Positions 6,850 to 26,765 of a stretch of DNA of 61,166 nucleotides are shown piece by piece. How positions within the stretch are numbered: position 1 is the stretch's first letter; each line of letters starts with the position of its first letter. The notes beneath the pieces were generated by a model. The model saw only the letters and a list, made by a program, of their open reading frames with translations, ran no database searches and was not told the origin of the DNA. Both the position numbers and the translations under genes were made by a program. Source of the stretch: Butyricicoccaceae bacterium (GTDB lineage Bacteria > Bacillota > Clostridia > Oscillospirales > Oscillospiraceae); NCBI GenBank assembly GCA_963629655.1, contig CAVGKI010000001.1, positions 1-61,166 on the forward strand, given 5' to 3'.

Positions 6850-7653
6850 ATGAGAGTTGTGGTAAAGGTCGGGACATCCACGCTGGCGCACTCCACGGGG
6901 CGGCTGAACATACAGCGGATGGAGCGGCTGTGCAAGGTGCTCAGCGACCTGAAAAATGCCGGACATGAGATAATTCTCGTCTCCTCCGGCGCGATAGGCA
7001 TGGGCGTGGGAAAGCTGAGTCTCGGCGAGCGCCCAAAGGATATGCCCACAAAGCAGGCAGCAGCGGCGGTAGGACAGTGCGAGCTGATGTATTTCTACGA
7101 CAAGCTTTTTGCCGAGTATAACCACATCGTCGCGCAGCTTCTCATCACCGCGCCGGATATTGCCGACGACGGGACGCGGAAGAGCAACTTCCACAACACG
7201 CTGGAGCGCCTTTTGCAGCTTGGCGCGCTGCCCGTCATAAACGAGAACGACACCGTGTCCACGGACGAGATAGTGATCGGCGACAACGACACGCTCTCCG
7301 CCGAGGTTGCGGCGCAGGTGTCGGCGGCGCTGCTGATAATCCTGTCGGACATCGACGGGCTGTACGACAGCGACCCGCACACAAACCCGAACGCGCAGCT
7401 CATATCCGAGGTCAAAGCGCTCGACGAGCGCATAATGTCCCTCGCGGGCGGCAGCGGCTCCGCCCTCGGCACGGGCGGCATGGTGACAAAGCTGCGCGCG
7501 GCAGCCATCGCCACCGCGCACGGGTGCGAGATGGTGATAGCAAACGGGCAGAAGCCGGAGGTGCTCTACGACATAATGGACGGGAAGCGCGTGGGCACAA
7601 GATTTCTGGCAGACAACAAAAAACAGGAGGAGCGCCGAAATGACTACACTTGA
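6850..7653 (+). CDS. proB: Glutamate 5-kinase (short form, no PUA domain)
   Basis: [12 protein letters not shown]...[11 protein letters not shown]...[21 protein letters not shown]. Start moved to the internal ATG at 6850. Overlaps proA by 14 nt. Confidence 0.92.
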
Positions 7654-20399: not shown

Positions 20400-20666
20400 T
20401 TATTCGGCGAGCCTCGCGTCCGACGCGAGCACCGTGACGACATTCTCGGACACCTCGGCGATGCCGCCGCCGACCTCGATGACAGCGCCGCCATCCTCGC
20501 CCATGCCGCAGCGGATGCGGCCGCGCTCAAGCGCGCACACCATGGGCGCATGCCCCGTGAGTATGCCGACAGAGCCGGAGACCGTGGGCAGATTGACATA
20601 GCTGACCGTCTCGTCAAAGACGGTGCTGTCCTGCGTCACAACGCACAGATGCAGCTTACTTTCCAT
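20400..20666 (-). CDS. atpC: F1 ATP synthase epsilon subunit, beta-sandwich domain only (88 aa)
   Basis: LHLCVVTQDSTVFDETVSYVNLPTVSGSVGILTGHAPMVCALERG...VTVLASDA matches the epsilon N-terminal domain. The ORF stops where the C-terminal helical hairpin normally begins. Confidence 0.85.
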   Translation of the reverse strand: MESKLHLCVVTQDSTVFDETVSYVNLPTVSGSVGILTGHAPMVCALERGRIRCGMGEDGGAVIEVGGGIAEVSENVVTVLASDARLAE

Positions 20667-20676
20667 GTCCTATCCC

Positions 20677-22080
<1,404 letters not shown>

Positions 22081-22109: not shown

Positions 22110-22961
22110 TTACATCATTGCGCTGCCGCCGACGATCTCGGATATCTCCGTGGTGATGGCGGCCTGTCTTGCGTGGTTAAGCTCCAGCGTGAGGGTGGCT
22201 ATAAGCTCCTCGGTGTTGTCCGTGGCGGCGGTCATCGCCGTCATGCGCGCCGAATGCTCGCCGGTCTTTGCCTCCAGCAGGACGGAATAGACCGTGTTGC
22301 TGATATAAAGCTCGACAAGCGAGTCGAGTACGGACGATGCGTCCGGCTCGAAGATATAGTCCCCGGTGATGCCGTGCTGCTCCTCCATCGTGGGAACAGG
22401 CAGCAGCGTGAGCCGCCCCGGTGTCTGCGAGAGGACAGACTTGAACTGCTGATACAGCAGCACGATCTCGTCCGCCTCGCCGCTAAGGTAGAGCTCCTTG
22501 AGATAATCGGTGAGCGCGCGGCATTCCTGCGCGGTGGGTGTGTCGCTGATATCGTCAAAAACACGCTTGACATTGATACCGGCGGCTTCAAAGCTCTCCT
22601 TGCCCCAGCGCCCGCACACCACCGCACAGCTCTCGCCGCCGTCGGCGGCAAGCTGCTCCTCGGCGTAGTGCAGCAGCGCGGAATTGTACACTCCGCAAAG
22701 ACCTCTGTTGCCGACAAAGATGACATAGCAGCGCCGTTTGACCTCGTCCCTCGCCTTGAGGAAGGGGTTGTCGGAATCCGACACGTTGCCCATCAGGTGC
22801 GAGAGGATGAAGCGGCTTTTATCGGAAAAGCTCTTGAGATTGCCGACAGCCGTCTGGGTGTGGCGGCGCTTTGTCGCCGCGACGACCTTCATGGACTTTG
22901 TTATCTGCCGGGTGTTCTCAATGCTCTTTATCCTTGTTCGGATAGCGCGCATATTTGCCAT
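22110..22961 (-). CDS. atpG: F1 ATP synthase gamma subunit
   Basis: MANMRAIRTRIKSIENTRQITKSMKVVAATK... Start set at ATG 22961, 6 nt after GAAGGAGGTG (the ORF-track GTG at 22970 lies inside the SD). Confidence 0.93.
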   Translation of the reverse strand: MANMRAIRTRIKSIENTRQITKSMKVVAATKRRHTQTAVGNLKSFSDKSRFILSHLMGNVSDSDNPFLKARDEVKRRCYVIFVGNRGLCGVYNSALLHYAEEQLAADGGESCAVVCGRWGKESFEAAGINVKRVFDDISDTPTAQECRALTDYLKELYLSGEADEIVLLYQQFKSVLSQTPGRLTLLPVPTMEEQHGITGDYIFEPDASSVLDSLVELYISNTVYSVLLEAKTGEHSARMTAMTAATDNTEELIATLTLELNHARQAAITTEISEIVGGSAMM

Positions 22962-23036
22962 ATGCCCCACCTCCTTCTTTTATGATTCACCCGCAGCGGG
23001 CGAGCGCACGGCGCGCCCGCTGCGGGGCTTGGGGAA

Positions 23037-25274
23037 TCAACCCCGCTTGAACTCCTCTATCACGGCGCGCAGCTTGTCTTGGCTCTCCTTGCTAAGCTTT
23101 CTGCCGCTGAGGATCTCATCGTGCAGCTCGGGATAATGCTTGTTGACATAGGGGATAAGCTCTTTTTCAAACTCTGCTATGTCCTTGACCTCCACATCGT
23201 CCGCGTAGCCCTCGGAGGCGGCGAAGATGGAGATGACCTGGTCGGCGGCATCCATCGGCGAGTAGCACGGCTGCTTCAAAAGCTCCGTCATTCTGTCGCC
23301 GCGGTGGAGGGTGTCGCGCGTCGCCTTGTCAAGGTCAGAGCCGAACTGCGAGAACGCTGCCAGCTCTCTGTACTGCGCCAGATCCATTCTCAGTCGTCCC
23401 GCAAACTGCTTCATCGCGCCGAGCTGTGCGCTGCCGCCGACACGGGACACGGAAAGACCCACGTTGACAGCCGGACGCACGCCGGAGTTGAAGAGGTCGG
23501 TTTCGAGGAATATCTGACCGTCGGTGATGGAAATGACGTTTGTGGGGATGTAGGCGGAGATGTCGCCCGCCTGCGTCTCGATGATGGGCAGAGCCGTCAT
23601 GCTGCCGCCGCCCAGCTCGTCACTGAGTCTCGCGGCGCGCTCAAGCAGTCTGGAGTGCAGATAGAAAACATCGCCGGGGTACGCTTCACGTCCGGGCGGA
23701 CGGTGCAGCAGCAGCGACAGCTCGCGGTAAGCGACAGCCTGCTTGCTCAAATCATCGTAGATGATGAGCACATCCTTGCCCTTGTACATGAAGTATTCGC
23801 CCATTGCCGCGCCGGAATAGGGCGCGATATAGAGCATGGGGGCAGGCTCGGATGCCGTGGCGCTGACAACAATGGAGTAATCCATTGCGCCGTGCTCGCG
23901 CAGCTTATCGACAAAGCTGGCAACCGTGGACTCTTTCTGACCTATGGCAACATAGATGCAGATCATGTCCTTGCCCTTCTGGTTGATGATGGTGTCAAGC
24001 GCGATGGAGGTCTTGCCCGTCTGGCGGTCGCCGATGATAAGCTCACGCTGACCGCGCCCGATAGGAATGAGCGCGTCGATCGCCTTGATGCCGGTCTGCA
24101 TAGGCGTGGAAACACTCTTGCGTTCGATAACGCCGGGAGCCTTCGTCTCGATGGGGCGCGTCTCGGTGGTACGCACTCTGCCCTTGCCGTCGATGGGACG
24201 GCCGAGGGAATCGACCACGCGCCCAAGCAGCGCCTCGCCCACGGGCACCTCGATAATGCGCCCGGTGCGGCGAACCTCGTCGCCCTCCTGCACGTAGTCG
24301 TAGTTGCCCAGCAGCACAACGCCGACATTGTCCCGCTCAAGGTCCATGACCATGCCGCGCAAATCGCCCTTGAACTCCAGAAGCTCGCCCGCCATAACGT
24401 CGGCAAGCCCGCTCACGCGGCAGATACCGTCGGAAAGCGACGTGACATGCCCGGTCTGATACGTCTCCATATCCTTGGGGGCGTTGGCGAGCTTGTCGCG
24501 GAACGCGCCGACCATGTCGTCGGTGTCCTCCGTCTCGGCGACGGAGCGGCGCACGCGGTCGAGCCGGCTGCGCACGGAGCCGTTGTAGAGAGAATCCCCT
24601 ACGGCAACGCACACGCCCGCAATGAGCGCGTCATCGCGCGCAACTGTGACATTCACGGCATCTTCGCCGAATTTATCCTTGAGAATTTGGGTGATCTTTG
24701 CCGCGTCCTCATCCGTCAGCTCCGCGCCGGCGGTGATTGTGGCATTGAGCTTCTCGCCGGAGGCGAGCTTCACCCTGTCGCTCTGGTTGATGACGAGCTT
24801 TTCGGGCAGCTCATCTATAAAGCGGGCAATGAGGCGCTTTTTACTCTCGGGGTCTGCCTGGCGCAGCATATCCGCCGCCGCGTCCGTCAGCTCCTTTGCC
24901 GCCTCGCTGTTAAAGCGGCGCTGCATATCGAAGCACATCTGCTCGTAGCTGCTGGCGTTGTCCGCCTCCGCCACGGCGCGCAGATGCTCCTCCTCGCGCT
25001 CGGACTCCTGCGAGAGCGCGGCAGCCTCGGCGTTCGCCTCGGCAATTATCCTGTCGCAGTCGCTTTTGCCCTCTGCAGTGACCGTTTCCATGCTCTCTCT
25101 GAGCTCGGCAGCGTTCACCTGCGCCTGCTTGGAATGCTCGATCTCGCCGGAAACCTTGTCGCGGTAGTCCGTGTAGAATTTCACGGCGAGCTTTTTGCCG
25201 AATTTGTACACGCCAAAGGCGAGTATCGCAAAGTTGATGAGGTTAAAGAGTAAACTCCACTCAAACGATAACAT
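23037..25274 (-). CDS. atpA: Fusion ORF: b-like membrane/stalk segment + delta(OSCP)-like domain + complete F1 alpha subunit
   Basis: Residues 1-30 form a TM helix like subunit b ([22 protein letters not shown]). Residues 30-135 are an A/E/R-rich helix. Residues ~175-245 carry the delta C-terminal signature (...[30 protein letters not shown]). From ~254 on it is a canonical alpha (Walker [10 protein letters not shown]). It has its own SD (AAGGAGGGG) and ATG at 25274. No separate atpH or atpA exists in the operon. Confidence 0.85.
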
Positions 25275-25315: not shown

Positions 25316-25738
25316 TCATTCGCTCATGAGCCTTTCTGCCAGTGCCTTTGCCATCTCGTCCTTATCGGAATCGAGCTGCGCTCTGGCGTCCTTTGCCATT
25401 GCGTCCACGCGCGCCTTTGCGTCCTTGCGCTCATCGGCGTTCTCGGCGGTGAGGCGGCGGGCGTACTCCTCGCGCTTCTTGCCGTCCTCCGCTCTCTGAC
25501 GGGCGAGTATTGCCTTCGCCTCGTCGCGGCTGGCGGCTTTGTCCGCCTCGACGCGCGCCTGATTGGCGGCGGCATCGTCCTTGGCGGCGCGCTCTGTCTC
25601 AAGCGCCGCGTCTATGCGCGCCTGACGCTCCGCCATGAATTTCGTGACGGGCTTATAAAGGAACTTATCAAGAATGAACAGCAAAACGAAGAAGCTGACT
25701 ATGGTGAGAACAAGCTCTGAAATATTGATACTCAGCAT
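25316..25738 (-). CDS. atpF: Fo ATP synthase subunit b
   Basis: 140 aa: an N-terminal TM helix (LVLTIVSFFVLLFILDKFLYKPV), then an A/E/K/R-rich coiled coil. Confidence 0.9.
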   Translation of the reverse strand: MLSINISELVLTIVSFFVLLFILDKFLYKPVTKFMAERQARIDAALETERAAKDDAAANQARVEADKAASRDEAKAILARQRAEDGKKREEYARRLTAENADERKDAKARVDAMAKDARAQLDSDKDEMAKALAERLMSE

Positions 25739-25833: not shown

Positions 25834-26085
<252 letters not shown>

Positions 26086-26099
26086 TTATTTAATTACTC

Positions 26100-26765
26100 T
26101 TAATCTTCACCGGCGGCTTCCGAAATGTAAATCGAAAGCAGCATGGTGAACACCAGTGCCTGTATCAGGCAGAACAGCAGCGACAGCACGTTCATCAGCA
26201 GCGGGGCGATCACGGGGAACAGCTTGTAGAGGTTTTCCGTGACCATTTCTTCGCCGTAGAGGTTGCCGTAAAGTCGCAGAGCCAGAGAGAACGGACGGGT
26301 GAACTGCTCAATGATGGTCAGCGGCAGCATCACGCTCAAAAACGACTTCAGATAGCCGCCCACGCCGCGTTCCTTGACACCGACGGTGTGGATGGTGAAG
26401 AAGCCGACAAGCGCCAGCGCCGCAGTGACCGAGAGGTTCGCCGTTGGGACTTTAAAGCCCTTGTAGTGACCCGCGCCGGGGATCAGACCGGAATAGTTGC
26501 TGACAATGATGAAGATAAAGAGCGTGGCGAGCACCGGGAAATATTTCTGCGCCATTTTCGCGCCGAGAATATCGCCGTAGTACCCCTGAAGCTTGCTCAC
26601 GACCTGCTCCGCGATATTCTGAAGCGGACCGGGCACATCCTTCATGTTCCTCGTGGCAAGGATGGACAGCACCGCCAGCACCGCGATTATCACCCACATT
26701 GTCACGACCGTGCCGGTGATCTCCACAGGACCGATCGAGAACAGGACGCTACTTGTTTCTTCCAT
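26100..26765 (-). CDS. atpB: Fo ATP synthase subunit a
   Basis: 221 aa, polytopic, with the conserved Arg in FSLALRLYGNLYGEE. Confidence 0.9.
   Translation of the reverse strand: MEETSSVLFSIGPVEITGTVVTMWVIIAVLAVLSILATRNMKDVPGPLQNIAEQVVSKLQGYYGDILGAKMAQKYFPVLATLFIFIIVSNYSGLIPGAGHYKGFKVPTANLSVTAALALVGFFTIHTVGVKERGVGGYLKSFLSVMLPLTIIEQFTRPFSLALRLYGNLYGEEMVTENLYKLFPVIAPLLMNVLSLLFCLIQALVFTMLLSIYISEAAGED

Follow-up and report, generated by a model that had tools for sequence, protein, structure and literature searches.

A single gene encoding b, the delta C-terminal domain and alpha in an F-type ATP synthase operon of Oscillospiraceae, and its possible bearing on peripheral stalk number

The ATP synthase operon and its fused gene

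The window analysed here is the whole stretch of 61,166 nucleotides from contig CAVGKI010000001.1. Its minus strand carries an ATP synthase operon with the gene order a, c, b, fused ORF, gamma, beta, epsilon, which is the F-type order and is common to the related loci L009, L081 and L082. The features, all on the minus strand, are as follows.

26100 to 26765, minus strand: a subunit, 221 aa (PF00119, 161.8 bits)
25834 to 26070, minus strand: c subunit, 78 aa (PF00137, 73.1 bits)
25316 to 25738, minus strand: free b/b' subunit, 140 aa (PF00430, 50.6 bits)
23037 to 25274, minus strand: fused gene b-delta(deltaN)-alpha, a continuous ORF of 745 codons plus stop, with Pfam and NCBIfam domains
24798 to 25274, minus strand: b segment of the fused gene, residues 1 to about 159, with a membrane helix at the N-terminus and then a long stalk helix
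24537 to 24794, minus strand: delta/OSCP C-terminal domain, residues 161-246 (PF00213)
24516 to 24536, minus strand: acidic linker E247-T-E-D-T-D-D253, read from the sequence, the codon of E247 being GAG
24526 to 24531, minus strand: SD-like GGAGGA within the linker, 10 nt 5' of the Met254 codon
24513 to 24515, minus strand: candidate internal start ATG (Met254), in frame
23037 to 24515, minus strand: alpha proper, residues 254-745 (PF02874, PF00006, PF00306), with a Walker A motif
22110 to 22970, minus strand: gamma subunit (PF00231, 281.7 bits)
20677 to 22065, minus strand: beta subunit, 462 aa (PF00006 and PF02874)
20400 to 20666, minus strand: epsilon subunit, 88 aa (PF02823 at residues 5-84)

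The fused ORF starts with an ATG, contains no internal stop and yields a product of 745 aa, and the exact protein was found in NCBI. It has its own SD, as an earlier note on this DNA had claimed, with AGGAGG placed 12-13 nt 5' of the start codon. Every Pfam match on the ORF exceeded its gathering score, those to the b and OSCP profiles included, and the Pfam and NCBIfam domains bear out the proposal of that note that b, the C-terminal part of delta and alpha share one ORF.

The first segment has the N-terminal transmembrane helix and the long amphipathic helix expected of a b subunit, and is of b length. PF00430 (ATP-synt_B) covers residues 8-100 (33.3 bits for a cutoff of 28), and NF004411 (b) aligns over residues 6-155, corresponding to positions 5-155 of a 156-position model. 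The AF2 model shows a single helix from 3 to 138, then helices from 142 to 159. The fused b segment is therefore a full-length b running to about residue 159. The parts had been recognised correctly in the earlier note, but the end of b had been set too early, at about residue 135.

The segment that follows is the C-terminal alpha/beta domain of delta, the one that binds the C-terminus of b. PF00213 (OSCP) matches residues 161-244 with 55 bits, for a cutoff of 22.3, over profile positions 88-171 of 172 only; TIGR01145 (delta) scores below its cutoff on the window ORF (47.4 for 57.5) and aligns at positions 100-170 only. The alpha/beta fold spans residues 176-246 in the AF2 model. In an HMM search this part hit the delta C-terminal domain in many enzymes of solved structure, the engineered chain 9jc1_I among them, and with Foldseek the junction between the delta C-terminal domain (delta-C) and alpha superposed on 9jc1_K/I/J with an rmsd of 3.2-4.0 A. 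The N-terminal helical bundle of delta (delta-N), which binds the N-termini of alpha, is absent from the fused ORF as judged by Pfam coverage and the AF2 model, where a single long helix stands in its place; the earlier remark that this part of delta looked short was correct.

Delta-C is joined to alpha by a linker of 4-7 residues, acidic and predicted to be unstructured in the AF2 model. Residues 251-744 then match TIGR00962 (atpA) at model positions 4-499 of 503, with 809.8 bits for a cutoff of 484.45. All three F-type alpha domains are found (ATP-synt_ab_N at 274-338, ATP-synt_ab at 395-610, ATP-synt_ab_C at 617-742), together with the Walker A motif GDRQTGKTS. One chain thus holds b, the delta C-terminal domain, a short linker and a complete alpha.

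Neither a second alpha nor a separate delta was found in the whole window, a tblastn search with the alpha part returning only the gene itself and beta; within these bounds, the absence of a separate atpH or atpA claimed earlier is upheld. Upstream of a, the coding strand has no ORF of at least 50 aa. The best NCBIfam matches of the free b subunit are B' models, below their cutoffs, and this 140-aa protein is presumed to be the partner of the fused b segment. The window epsilon consists of the beta-sandwich only, without the C-terminal inhibitory helices; in the subclade of the window it is always 87-88 aa long, against about 137 aa in the majority of the other fused lineages. For gamma, the listed start is the GTG at 22970, and the ATG at 22961, which follows AAGGAGG, is a likelier one.

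Conservation of the fused gene

Loci from 21 species representatives were recovered, and in all of them the junction from b to alpha is one uninterrupted frame. In nineteen the ORF is complete, with 711-800 codons from stop to stop; the two others run off the end of a contig. Homolog searches by word index, with residues 1-250 or with a profile of the junction, gave mostly fragments. These loci come from MAGs of Oscillospiraceae and related Clostridia, including Vescimonas, Ca. Cacconaster and 'Oscillibacter sp.', and deeper fused lineages were also found (P0019, P0020, P0044, P0075, P0027, P0032, P0082 and P0120). The conservation in relatives about which the earlier note had asked is thereby established. 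The 90% cluster of the window protein has 6 members, all of 745 aa, which derive from independent NCBI and ENA assemblies, and one of them occurs on 14 contigs. In a related species cluster of 1,339 members, the full-length ones among those listed are continuous fusions of 732 aa. Ratios of dN/dS were 0.13-0.26 for residues 1-250 and 0.06-0.11 for alpha, so that the b-delta arm is under purifying selection. The fusion is real, old and conserved, and the family occurs widely among Clostridia of human and animal guts, also in cultured genera, Vescimonas for example.

A few in-frame TAG codons were encountered. In locus L001, 99% identical to L002, TAG stands in place of the E247 codon (GAG in the window), and in L081 and L082 TAGs fall within the alpha beta-barrel. 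Each of the three is a minority variant, the other listed members of those species carrying the continuous fusion. If the L001 variant is real and viable, separate expression of alpha would be possible. As proof of a functional split, this TAG is nevertheless weakened by its minority status and by the beta-barrel TAGs of L081 and L082. Recoding of TAG found no support: no tRNA is present in the TAG-bearing loci, and TAG is the ordinary stop of the L082 gamma gene.

Stoichiometry of alpha and number of peripheral stalks

The gene encodes what would be a whole stator arm as a single polypeptide, made of the b anchor and stalk helix, the b-binding delta-C and alpha. As it is the only alpha gene in the window, each of the three alpha copies is expected to carry its own b-delta(C) arm. 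Each arm would most likely pair with the free 140-aa b into a heterodimeric stalk of the b/b' type.

The H+/ATP ratio is a basic constant of cellular energetics, and was formerly thought to be set only by the size of the c-ring. Two reports of 2025, one on an engineered enzyme (PMC12229609) and one on the Chloroflexus structure described below, show that additional stalks with their a-subunits can multiply it. Ueno et al. 2025 (Nat Commun 16:5410; PMC12229609; PDB 9JC1/9JC2) deleted delta-N from the Bacillus PS3 FoF1 and fused delta-C to alpha. The resulting enzyme had as many as three stalks, and every stalk came with b2 and an a-subunit of its own; its H+/ATP was 5.8 vs 3.0, and its equilibrium pmf 68 vs 133 mV (PMC12229609). 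So far, this is the only enzyme in which a delta(deltaN)-alpha fusion has been shown to give several stalks.

Because the same two changes, loss of delta-N and fusion of delta-C to alpha, yielded up to three functional stalks in the engineered enzyme, the best-supported reading of the window gene, by analogy and with somewhat more for it than against it, is an enzyme with two or three peripheral stalks. A stalk on every alpha had been the second option of the earlier note, and gains strength from the engineered enzyme. By the same analogy each stalk would recruit its own a-subunit, and several a-subunits would translocate more protons per turn and raise H+/ATP; this would permit ATP synthesis at low proton-motive force or, in reverse, the pumping of more protons per ATP. 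The stricter form, an obligate F-type ATP synthase with three stalks and three a-subunits in abundant gut Oscillospiraceae, its stalk number hard-wired by a single polypeptide, is put forward only tentatively. Were it true, H+/ATP would reach about three times its usual value, close to the c-ring number, and ATP could be made at very low pmf, or a small pmf be cheaply maintained by ATP hydrolysis. All F/N-type ATPases lacking delta-N, stand-alone b-delta(C) types included, would then be candidates for multi-stalk assembly.

Among the alternatives, the one that fares best is internal initiation, the first answer of the earlier note to the stoichiometry question. Translation would start at Met1 and also at Met254, the latter served by GGAGGA, and each complex would receive one full-length chain and two free 492-aa alpha. 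The product would be a conventional single-stalk enzyme in which a covalent tether replaces delta-N, and the arrangement would be confined to the window's subclade. The positions that the note gave proved exact, the ATG at 24515-24513 being preceded by GGAGGA at 24531-24526 with a 10 nt spacer. The duplex of GGAGGA with the anti-SD has an energy of -9.5 kcal/mol, which ranks 2 of 45 in-frame internal start codons and comes near the values for true gene starts of related loci (-10.6 to -12.8 kcal/mol). An ATG is kept at this position in the window and six relatives (L002, L003, L006, L007, L009, L010), and L001, with its TAG at the junction, would need an internal start to make alpha at all.

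The signal does not, however, extend over the family. In the 20 sequences scored (the window and 19 relatives, 2 further loci being left out), the codon aligned with Met254 is ATG in 7 and GTG in 5, one of the latter being L004, where an ATG is found one codon downstream; in another 7 it is a non-start codon (ATC, ATT, GTC, GTA or CTC). GGAGG is common only to the window and L007, with some SD-like signal in L006, L004 and L015, and it is lost even at 77-81% identity, in the close relatives L002 (GAGGCGGAC) and L003 (GATGCTGAC). Most deeper fused lineages have no Met at all at the junction. Both elements could also have arisen by chance, as GGAGG merely spells Glu-Asp codons of an acidic linker, and Met254 falls at a hydrophobic helix position occupied by M, V, I or L. 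The L001 TAG may itself be a sporadic nonsense variant, comparable to the TAGs of the other species within the alpha beta-barrel, where a split would be non-functional. The internal start is thus, on sequence comparison, not conserved across the fused family, and without a family-wide internal start the full-length chain must serve as alpha. Some free alpha may be made in the window organism, given its strong SD-like motif and ATG; as a general answer to the stoichiometry question, initiation at two sites is unlikely.

If all three alpha are fused, it could still be that only one arm docks on a single a-subunit, the two others being idle tethers or folding back, with an unchanged proton stoichiometry. 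This agrees with the lack of a family-wide internal start, which implies that all alpha copies are fused, and the sequence bears no sign that extra a-subunits are recruited. In the engineered enzyme, however, each observed stalk had its a-subunit, the stalk count setting the a-subunit count, and the natural two-stalk Chloroflexus enzyme has two a-subunits. We consider such idle arms improbable. Still less credit is given to a precursor whose acidic linker would be cut by a protease once the complex is assembled, to leave free alpha and a b-delta(C) resembling the stand-alone subunits of about 245 aa known elsewhere. The linker is indeed short, acidic and predicted to be unstructured, and the two halves can work apart, since a stand-alone b-delta(C) and a separate alpha exist, for instance P0094 in L083/L084. 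On the other hand, the linker sequence varies among relatives, no protease gene was found linked to the operon, and cleavage alone would leave the 3:1 stoichiometry unsolved.

Finally, an artefact or pseudogene, i. e. a stop or indel between atpH and atpA missed in assembly or sequencing, as the junction stop of the close relative L001 might suggest, is effectively refuted by the conservation of the continuous frame in 21 of 21 species representatives and in the cluster of 1,339, by the independent assemblies, by purifying selection on the arm, and by the complete absence of delta-N, which a missed stop does not explain.

Comparison with known ATP synthases

Residues 1-250 find their best structural and sequence match in the mycobacterial b-delta fusion (AtpH; PDB 7JG5, 7NJK, 8J0S; NF009961). 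There too b is N-terminal to delta, and the fusion pairs with a separate free b (b') into a heterodimeric stalk. The mycobacterial protein (445 aa) differs in that it has a full delta, with the N-terminal domain and an insertion, has no link to alpha, and occurs as a single copy in each complex. The window ORF reaches 56.2 bits with NF009961, far from the cutoff of 328, and only its b part and the delta C-terminal part align.

The long AtpF of N-ATPases (TIGR03321, PRK14474; Dibrova et al. 2010) likewise consists of b and the C-terminal part of delta only, without atpH. Window residues 11-245 align end to end with positions 11-245 of the 246 of TIGR03321, and many stand-alone b-delta(C) homologs of about 245 aa were found. 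The N-ATPase protein and these stand-alone homologs end before alpha, whereas the window chain continues into it. The N-ATPase operon is ordered atpDCQRBEFAG, with atpQ and atpR, in contrast to the F-type order of the window. Membership in the N-ATPases is rejected on this order and on scores below cutoff for the models of N-type alpha, TIGR03324 (646.6 for 750.5), and N-type b, TIGR03321 (35 for 224.7).

In the F-type enzyme of Chloroflexus aurantiacus, two stalks and two a-subunits are present, which has been put down to a shortened delta-N (PNAS 2025; PDB 9ITJ and related entries). Like the window enzyme it is a natural F-type enzyme whose delta-N is altered, a change that in Chloroflexus permits more than a single stalk and a-subunit, and its delta-C matches that of the window. 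Chloroflexus, however, still has its delta as a separate protein, whose shortened delta-N of four helices dimerises on top of F1, and fuses neither b nor alpha; in the window delta-N is wholly missing and delta has no gene of its own.

A more distant likeness is to the E-G stalks of V/A-type enzymes and to FliH/SctL of type III secretion ATPases, where the N-terminus of each non-catalytic subunit has a stalk to itself. Pallen et al. 2006, as reported in a paper citing it, proposed that E is the equivalent of a b and delta fusion. V-ATPase E chains are among the weaker fold matches of the window protein, and a match to NF002424 was marginal (E = 0.007). E/G stalks differ in that they lack a membrane anchor and are not covalently joined to the B subunit.

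The closest relatives in architecture are the delta(deltaN)-alpha fusions as defined by Ueno et al.: in these as in the window, delta-N is missing, a short linker joins delta-C to the N-terminus of alpha, and there is no separate delta. The statement of the earlier note that no linkage onward to alpha had been described is overtaken by this work. Natural examples have so far been mentioned in one Discussion paragraph only, for Acidaminococcus: A. fermentans D2RLW6, with UniProt G4Q3K6 and A0A1I2C5T3 (PMC12229609). D2RLW6 is considered here by its description in that paper, as a delta(deltaN)-alpha protein; its host belongs to the Acidaminococcaceae (class Negativicutes), that of the window to the Oscillospiraceae (class Clostridia). 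A natural 575-aa version without b is found in the related locus L085. Literature searches on Oscillospiraceae or an atpH-atpA fusion gave nothing beyond Ueno et al., and in the literature searched no description was found of b in the same chain or of the distribution in Oscillospiraceae.

Compared with the engineered construct, the window shares an epsilon without C-terminal domain. Its partner subunit is a separate b/b', unlike the b2 homodimer of the construct, and its b lies within the chain (745 aa vs 580 aa), whereas the engineered b is not covalently attached. With b in the same chain, each alpha is locked 1:1 to a stalk that cannot dissociate. The gut Clostridia family thus goes one step beyond the Acidaminococcus type, with a b fusion that would fix the stalk:alpha ratio at 1:1. 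As a natural example of a three-stalk F-type ATP synthase it is a strong candidate, and would offer a direct test of whether nature lives on very small ion gradients by the multi-stalk route.

Domain anatomy and operon of the fused ORF

The 745-codon gene that the earlier note had described at 23037..25274 (-) is real: it starts with ATG, is preceded by AGGAGG and contains no internal stop. By product, its operon reads ATP-synt_A, ATP-synt_C, ATP-synt_B (140 aa), the fused ORF, gamma, beta and epsilon. Neither a separate delta nor a second alpha was found in the whole 61-kb window by tblastn with the alpha part and the N-terminal part as queries, in agreement with that description. An N-ATPase identity was excluded, since the gene order is F-type, atpQ and atpR are absent, and alpha passes the F-type model and fails the N-type model. 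On the opposite strand, a 724-aa ORF without domain support (23079-25253, +) spans nearly all of the fused gene; a GC-rich shadow ORF is the most likely explanation.

Domains of the chain are listed below; all Pfam domains scored above gathering scores, and the AlphaFold2 model covers residues 1-300 (mean pLDDT 77.5).

Domains and predicted structure of the fused ORF product (residue numbers)
8-100: ATP-synt_B (Pfam)
161-244: OSCP (Pfam), profile positions 88-171 of 172 only
274-742: three alpha domains (Pfam)
251-744: atpA TIGR00962 (NCBIfam, 810 bits)
3-138: single helix, followed by two short helices (AlphaFold2)
176-246: compact alpha/beta domain (AlphaFold2)
247-253: acidic linker, unstructured (AlphaFold2)
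254-263: alpha N-terminal helix (AlphaFold2)

The b-subunit NCBIfam models align to residues ~6-157, which is the whole length of a normal b. From these domains and the model we conclude that the chain consists, in order, of a complete b, delta's C-terminal domain (delta-C), a linker of 4-7 residues and a complete alpha. A profile search against solved structures matched mycobacterial b-delta chains, many delta C-terminal domains and b subunits, as well as chain 9jc1_I, annotated "ATP synthase delta subunit, ATP synthase subunit alpha". Foldseek agreed with this search, placing the delta-C/alpha junction on 9JC1 chains at 3.2-4.0 A over 112-117 columns.

Conservation of the fusion and related architectures

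A scan for related loci, limited to one genome per species, returned 21 loci, hosted by uncultured Oscillospiraceae, Vescimonas spp., Ca. Cacconaster stercorequi, "Oscillibacter sp." MAGs and UBA/UMGS/RUG bins. All 21 run from the b helix to alpha in one unbroken frame (19 complete, 2 running off the contig end). An exhaustive HMMER search, whose profile covered b-delta only, recovered full-length fusions (724-753 aa) of far greater divergence, together with many truncated ones. The exact window protein is present in NCBI, and its 90% cluster (n=6, several assemblies) holds 745-aa proteins exclusively; in a related species cluster (n=1,339), the full-length members among those listed are all 732-aa fusions. 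Between close relatives, dN/dS was 0.13-0.26 for residues 1-250, the b-delta(C) arm, and 0.06-0.11 for alpha, so the arm is translated and constrained. An artefact was therefore rejected, the fusion being continuous in relatives and independent assemblies, with a constrained arm.

The b-delta(C) module also occurs outside the window's clade. Stand-alone proteins of ~245 aa are numerous in HMMER searches, and their best NCBIfam matches, below cutoff, are the N-ATPase-type long b (TIGR03321) and PRK14474; the C-terminus of the long N-ATPase AtpF was aligned with delta by Dibrova et al. 2010. At two related loci (L083:3971-6332 and L084:3971-5843), a and c precede a single b-delta(C) gene (245 aa), and alpha follows as a gene of its own; gene calling placed no further b between c and b-delta(C). 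This operon may represent a pre-fusion or split state, and raises the question of stalk number in enzymes lacking the delta N-terminal domain (delta-N). In a third locus (L085:3707-6276), b is followed by a second b of 250 aa, whose end resembles a degenerate delta-C, and then by a delta(deltaN)-alpha of 575 aa, i.e. delta without delta-N joined to alpha, here without b and clearly related in sequence to the window's family; the locus thus carries the delta C-terminal domain twice, on b and on alpha. Taken with the window, these arrangements mean that in nature delta-C is carried by b, by alpha or by both at once, the window being the "both" state. The b-delta profile search also returned a 340-aa protein (P0126) with two tandem delta-C-terminal-like domains and neither a b nor an alpha part.

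A possible internal start and in-frame TAG codons

The earlier note had proposed internal initiation as a way out of the stoichiometry problem posed by three alpha per delta. The in-frame ATG at Met254 (24515-24513) and the GGAGGA motif (24531-24526) lie exactly where it put them, and the site is strong in the window, with an anti-SD duplex energy of -9.5 kcal/mol; only one of the 45 in-frame internal start codons ranks above it. However, of the 20 sequences that allowed scoring (the window and 19 relatives), 7 have ATG at the aligned codon, 5 have GTG (L004, one of these, with ATG one codon on) and 7 have ATC, ATT, GTC, GTA or CTC. GGAGG is common to the window and L007 only, being already gone in relatives at 77-81% identity, and most deep fused lineages have no Met at all at the junction. 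The Met254 position is a hydrophobic helix position, and GGAGG corresponds to Glu-Asp codons of the acidic linker. Free alpha may be produced from Met254 in the window's subclade, but, the site not being conserved, this cannot be the family's answer to the stoichiometry problem.

A TAG at L001:4375-4377, in a locus 99% identical to the fused L002, replaces the Glu247-equivalent codon at the delta/alpha junction, and alpha continues in frame. It looked at first like a natural split. In L081 (about 6853-6855) and L082 (about 6856-6858), in-frame TAGs fall within the alpha beta-barrel, at Tyr and Glu codons of relatives, where a split cannot work. These three independent stops come from different species, all are TAG, and the frame is intact after each; all are minority variants, other listed members of those species carrying the continuous fusion. 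Because a split cannot work in the beta-barrel and all three are in the minority, which also weakens the case for a split in L001, we treat them as sporadic nonsense variants or errors and do not count them in favour of a programmed split. Of the three stop codons, TAG is the least used in the contigs concerned. In the 90% cluster of the L081-type alpha (L081:6892-8211), a 274-aa form (P0282, P0283) occurs on up to 90 contigs beside the 736-aa fusion, its longest contigs equal in size to those of the fusion; this form may reflect a different gene call or be a further common truncation.

Comparison with multi-stalk ATP synthases

Two recent papers changed our reading of the fused gene. Ueno et al. 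2025 (PMC12229609) started from Bacillus PS3 FoF1, removed delta-N (residues 2-104) and joined delta-C (105-178) to the alpha N-terminus. The resulting enzyme had as many as three peripheral stalks, and every stalk came with b2 and an a-subunit of its own. Its H+/ATP was 5.8 instead of 3.0 and its equilibrium pmf 68 instead of 133 mV, and they concluded that delta-N limits the enzyme to one stalk. Zhang et al. 2025 (PMC12002316) solved the structure of the Chloroflexus aurantiacus enzyme, a natural case of two stalks and two a-subunits, which they ascribed to its shortened delta-N.

In the best-supported model for the window, every alpha would bring its own b-delta(C) arm and each arm would pair with free b, giving an enzyme with at least two and at most three stalks and a-subunits, and a correspondingly higher H+/ATP. 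The domain order of the chain and its conservation are established by the data above, while we infer the stalk and a-subunit numbers, and the energetics. With b covalently attached, stalk and alpha would be locked at 1:1, and this makes these culturable gut bacteria a strong natural system in which to test for a three-stalk F-type ATP synthase.

The earlier claim that delta had not been described as linked to alpha no longer holds, as Ueno et al. (PMC12229609), besides engineering such a protein, point to gene fusions of the delta(deltaN)-alpha type that occur naturally, in Acidaminococcus fermentans (D2RLW6) and in two further entries. Full-text literature searches found no description of the triple b-delta(C)-alpha chain, or of its occurrence across Oscillospiraceae; Niu et al. 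2017 listed only a delta-less transcription unit in Clostridia. Going by the name that Ueno et al. consistently use, delta(deltaN)-alpha, the Acidaminococcus fusions would lack b; Acidaminococcus belongs to the class Negativicutes, whereas the window's clade belongs to Clostridia.

The window's epsilon (20400-20666, -) is an 88-aa beta-sandwich without the C-terminal inhibitory helices. The same form, 87-88 aa long, recurs in every member of the window's subclade (L002-L007) as well as in L051, against ~137 aa in most other fused lineages; the multi-stalk enzyme of Ueno et al. likewise used an epsilon without its C-terminal domain. Like their design, the window protein lacks delta-N and has delta-C joined directly to alpha, with no other delta; unlike it, b is also part of the same chain, and a free b/b' gene adjoins.
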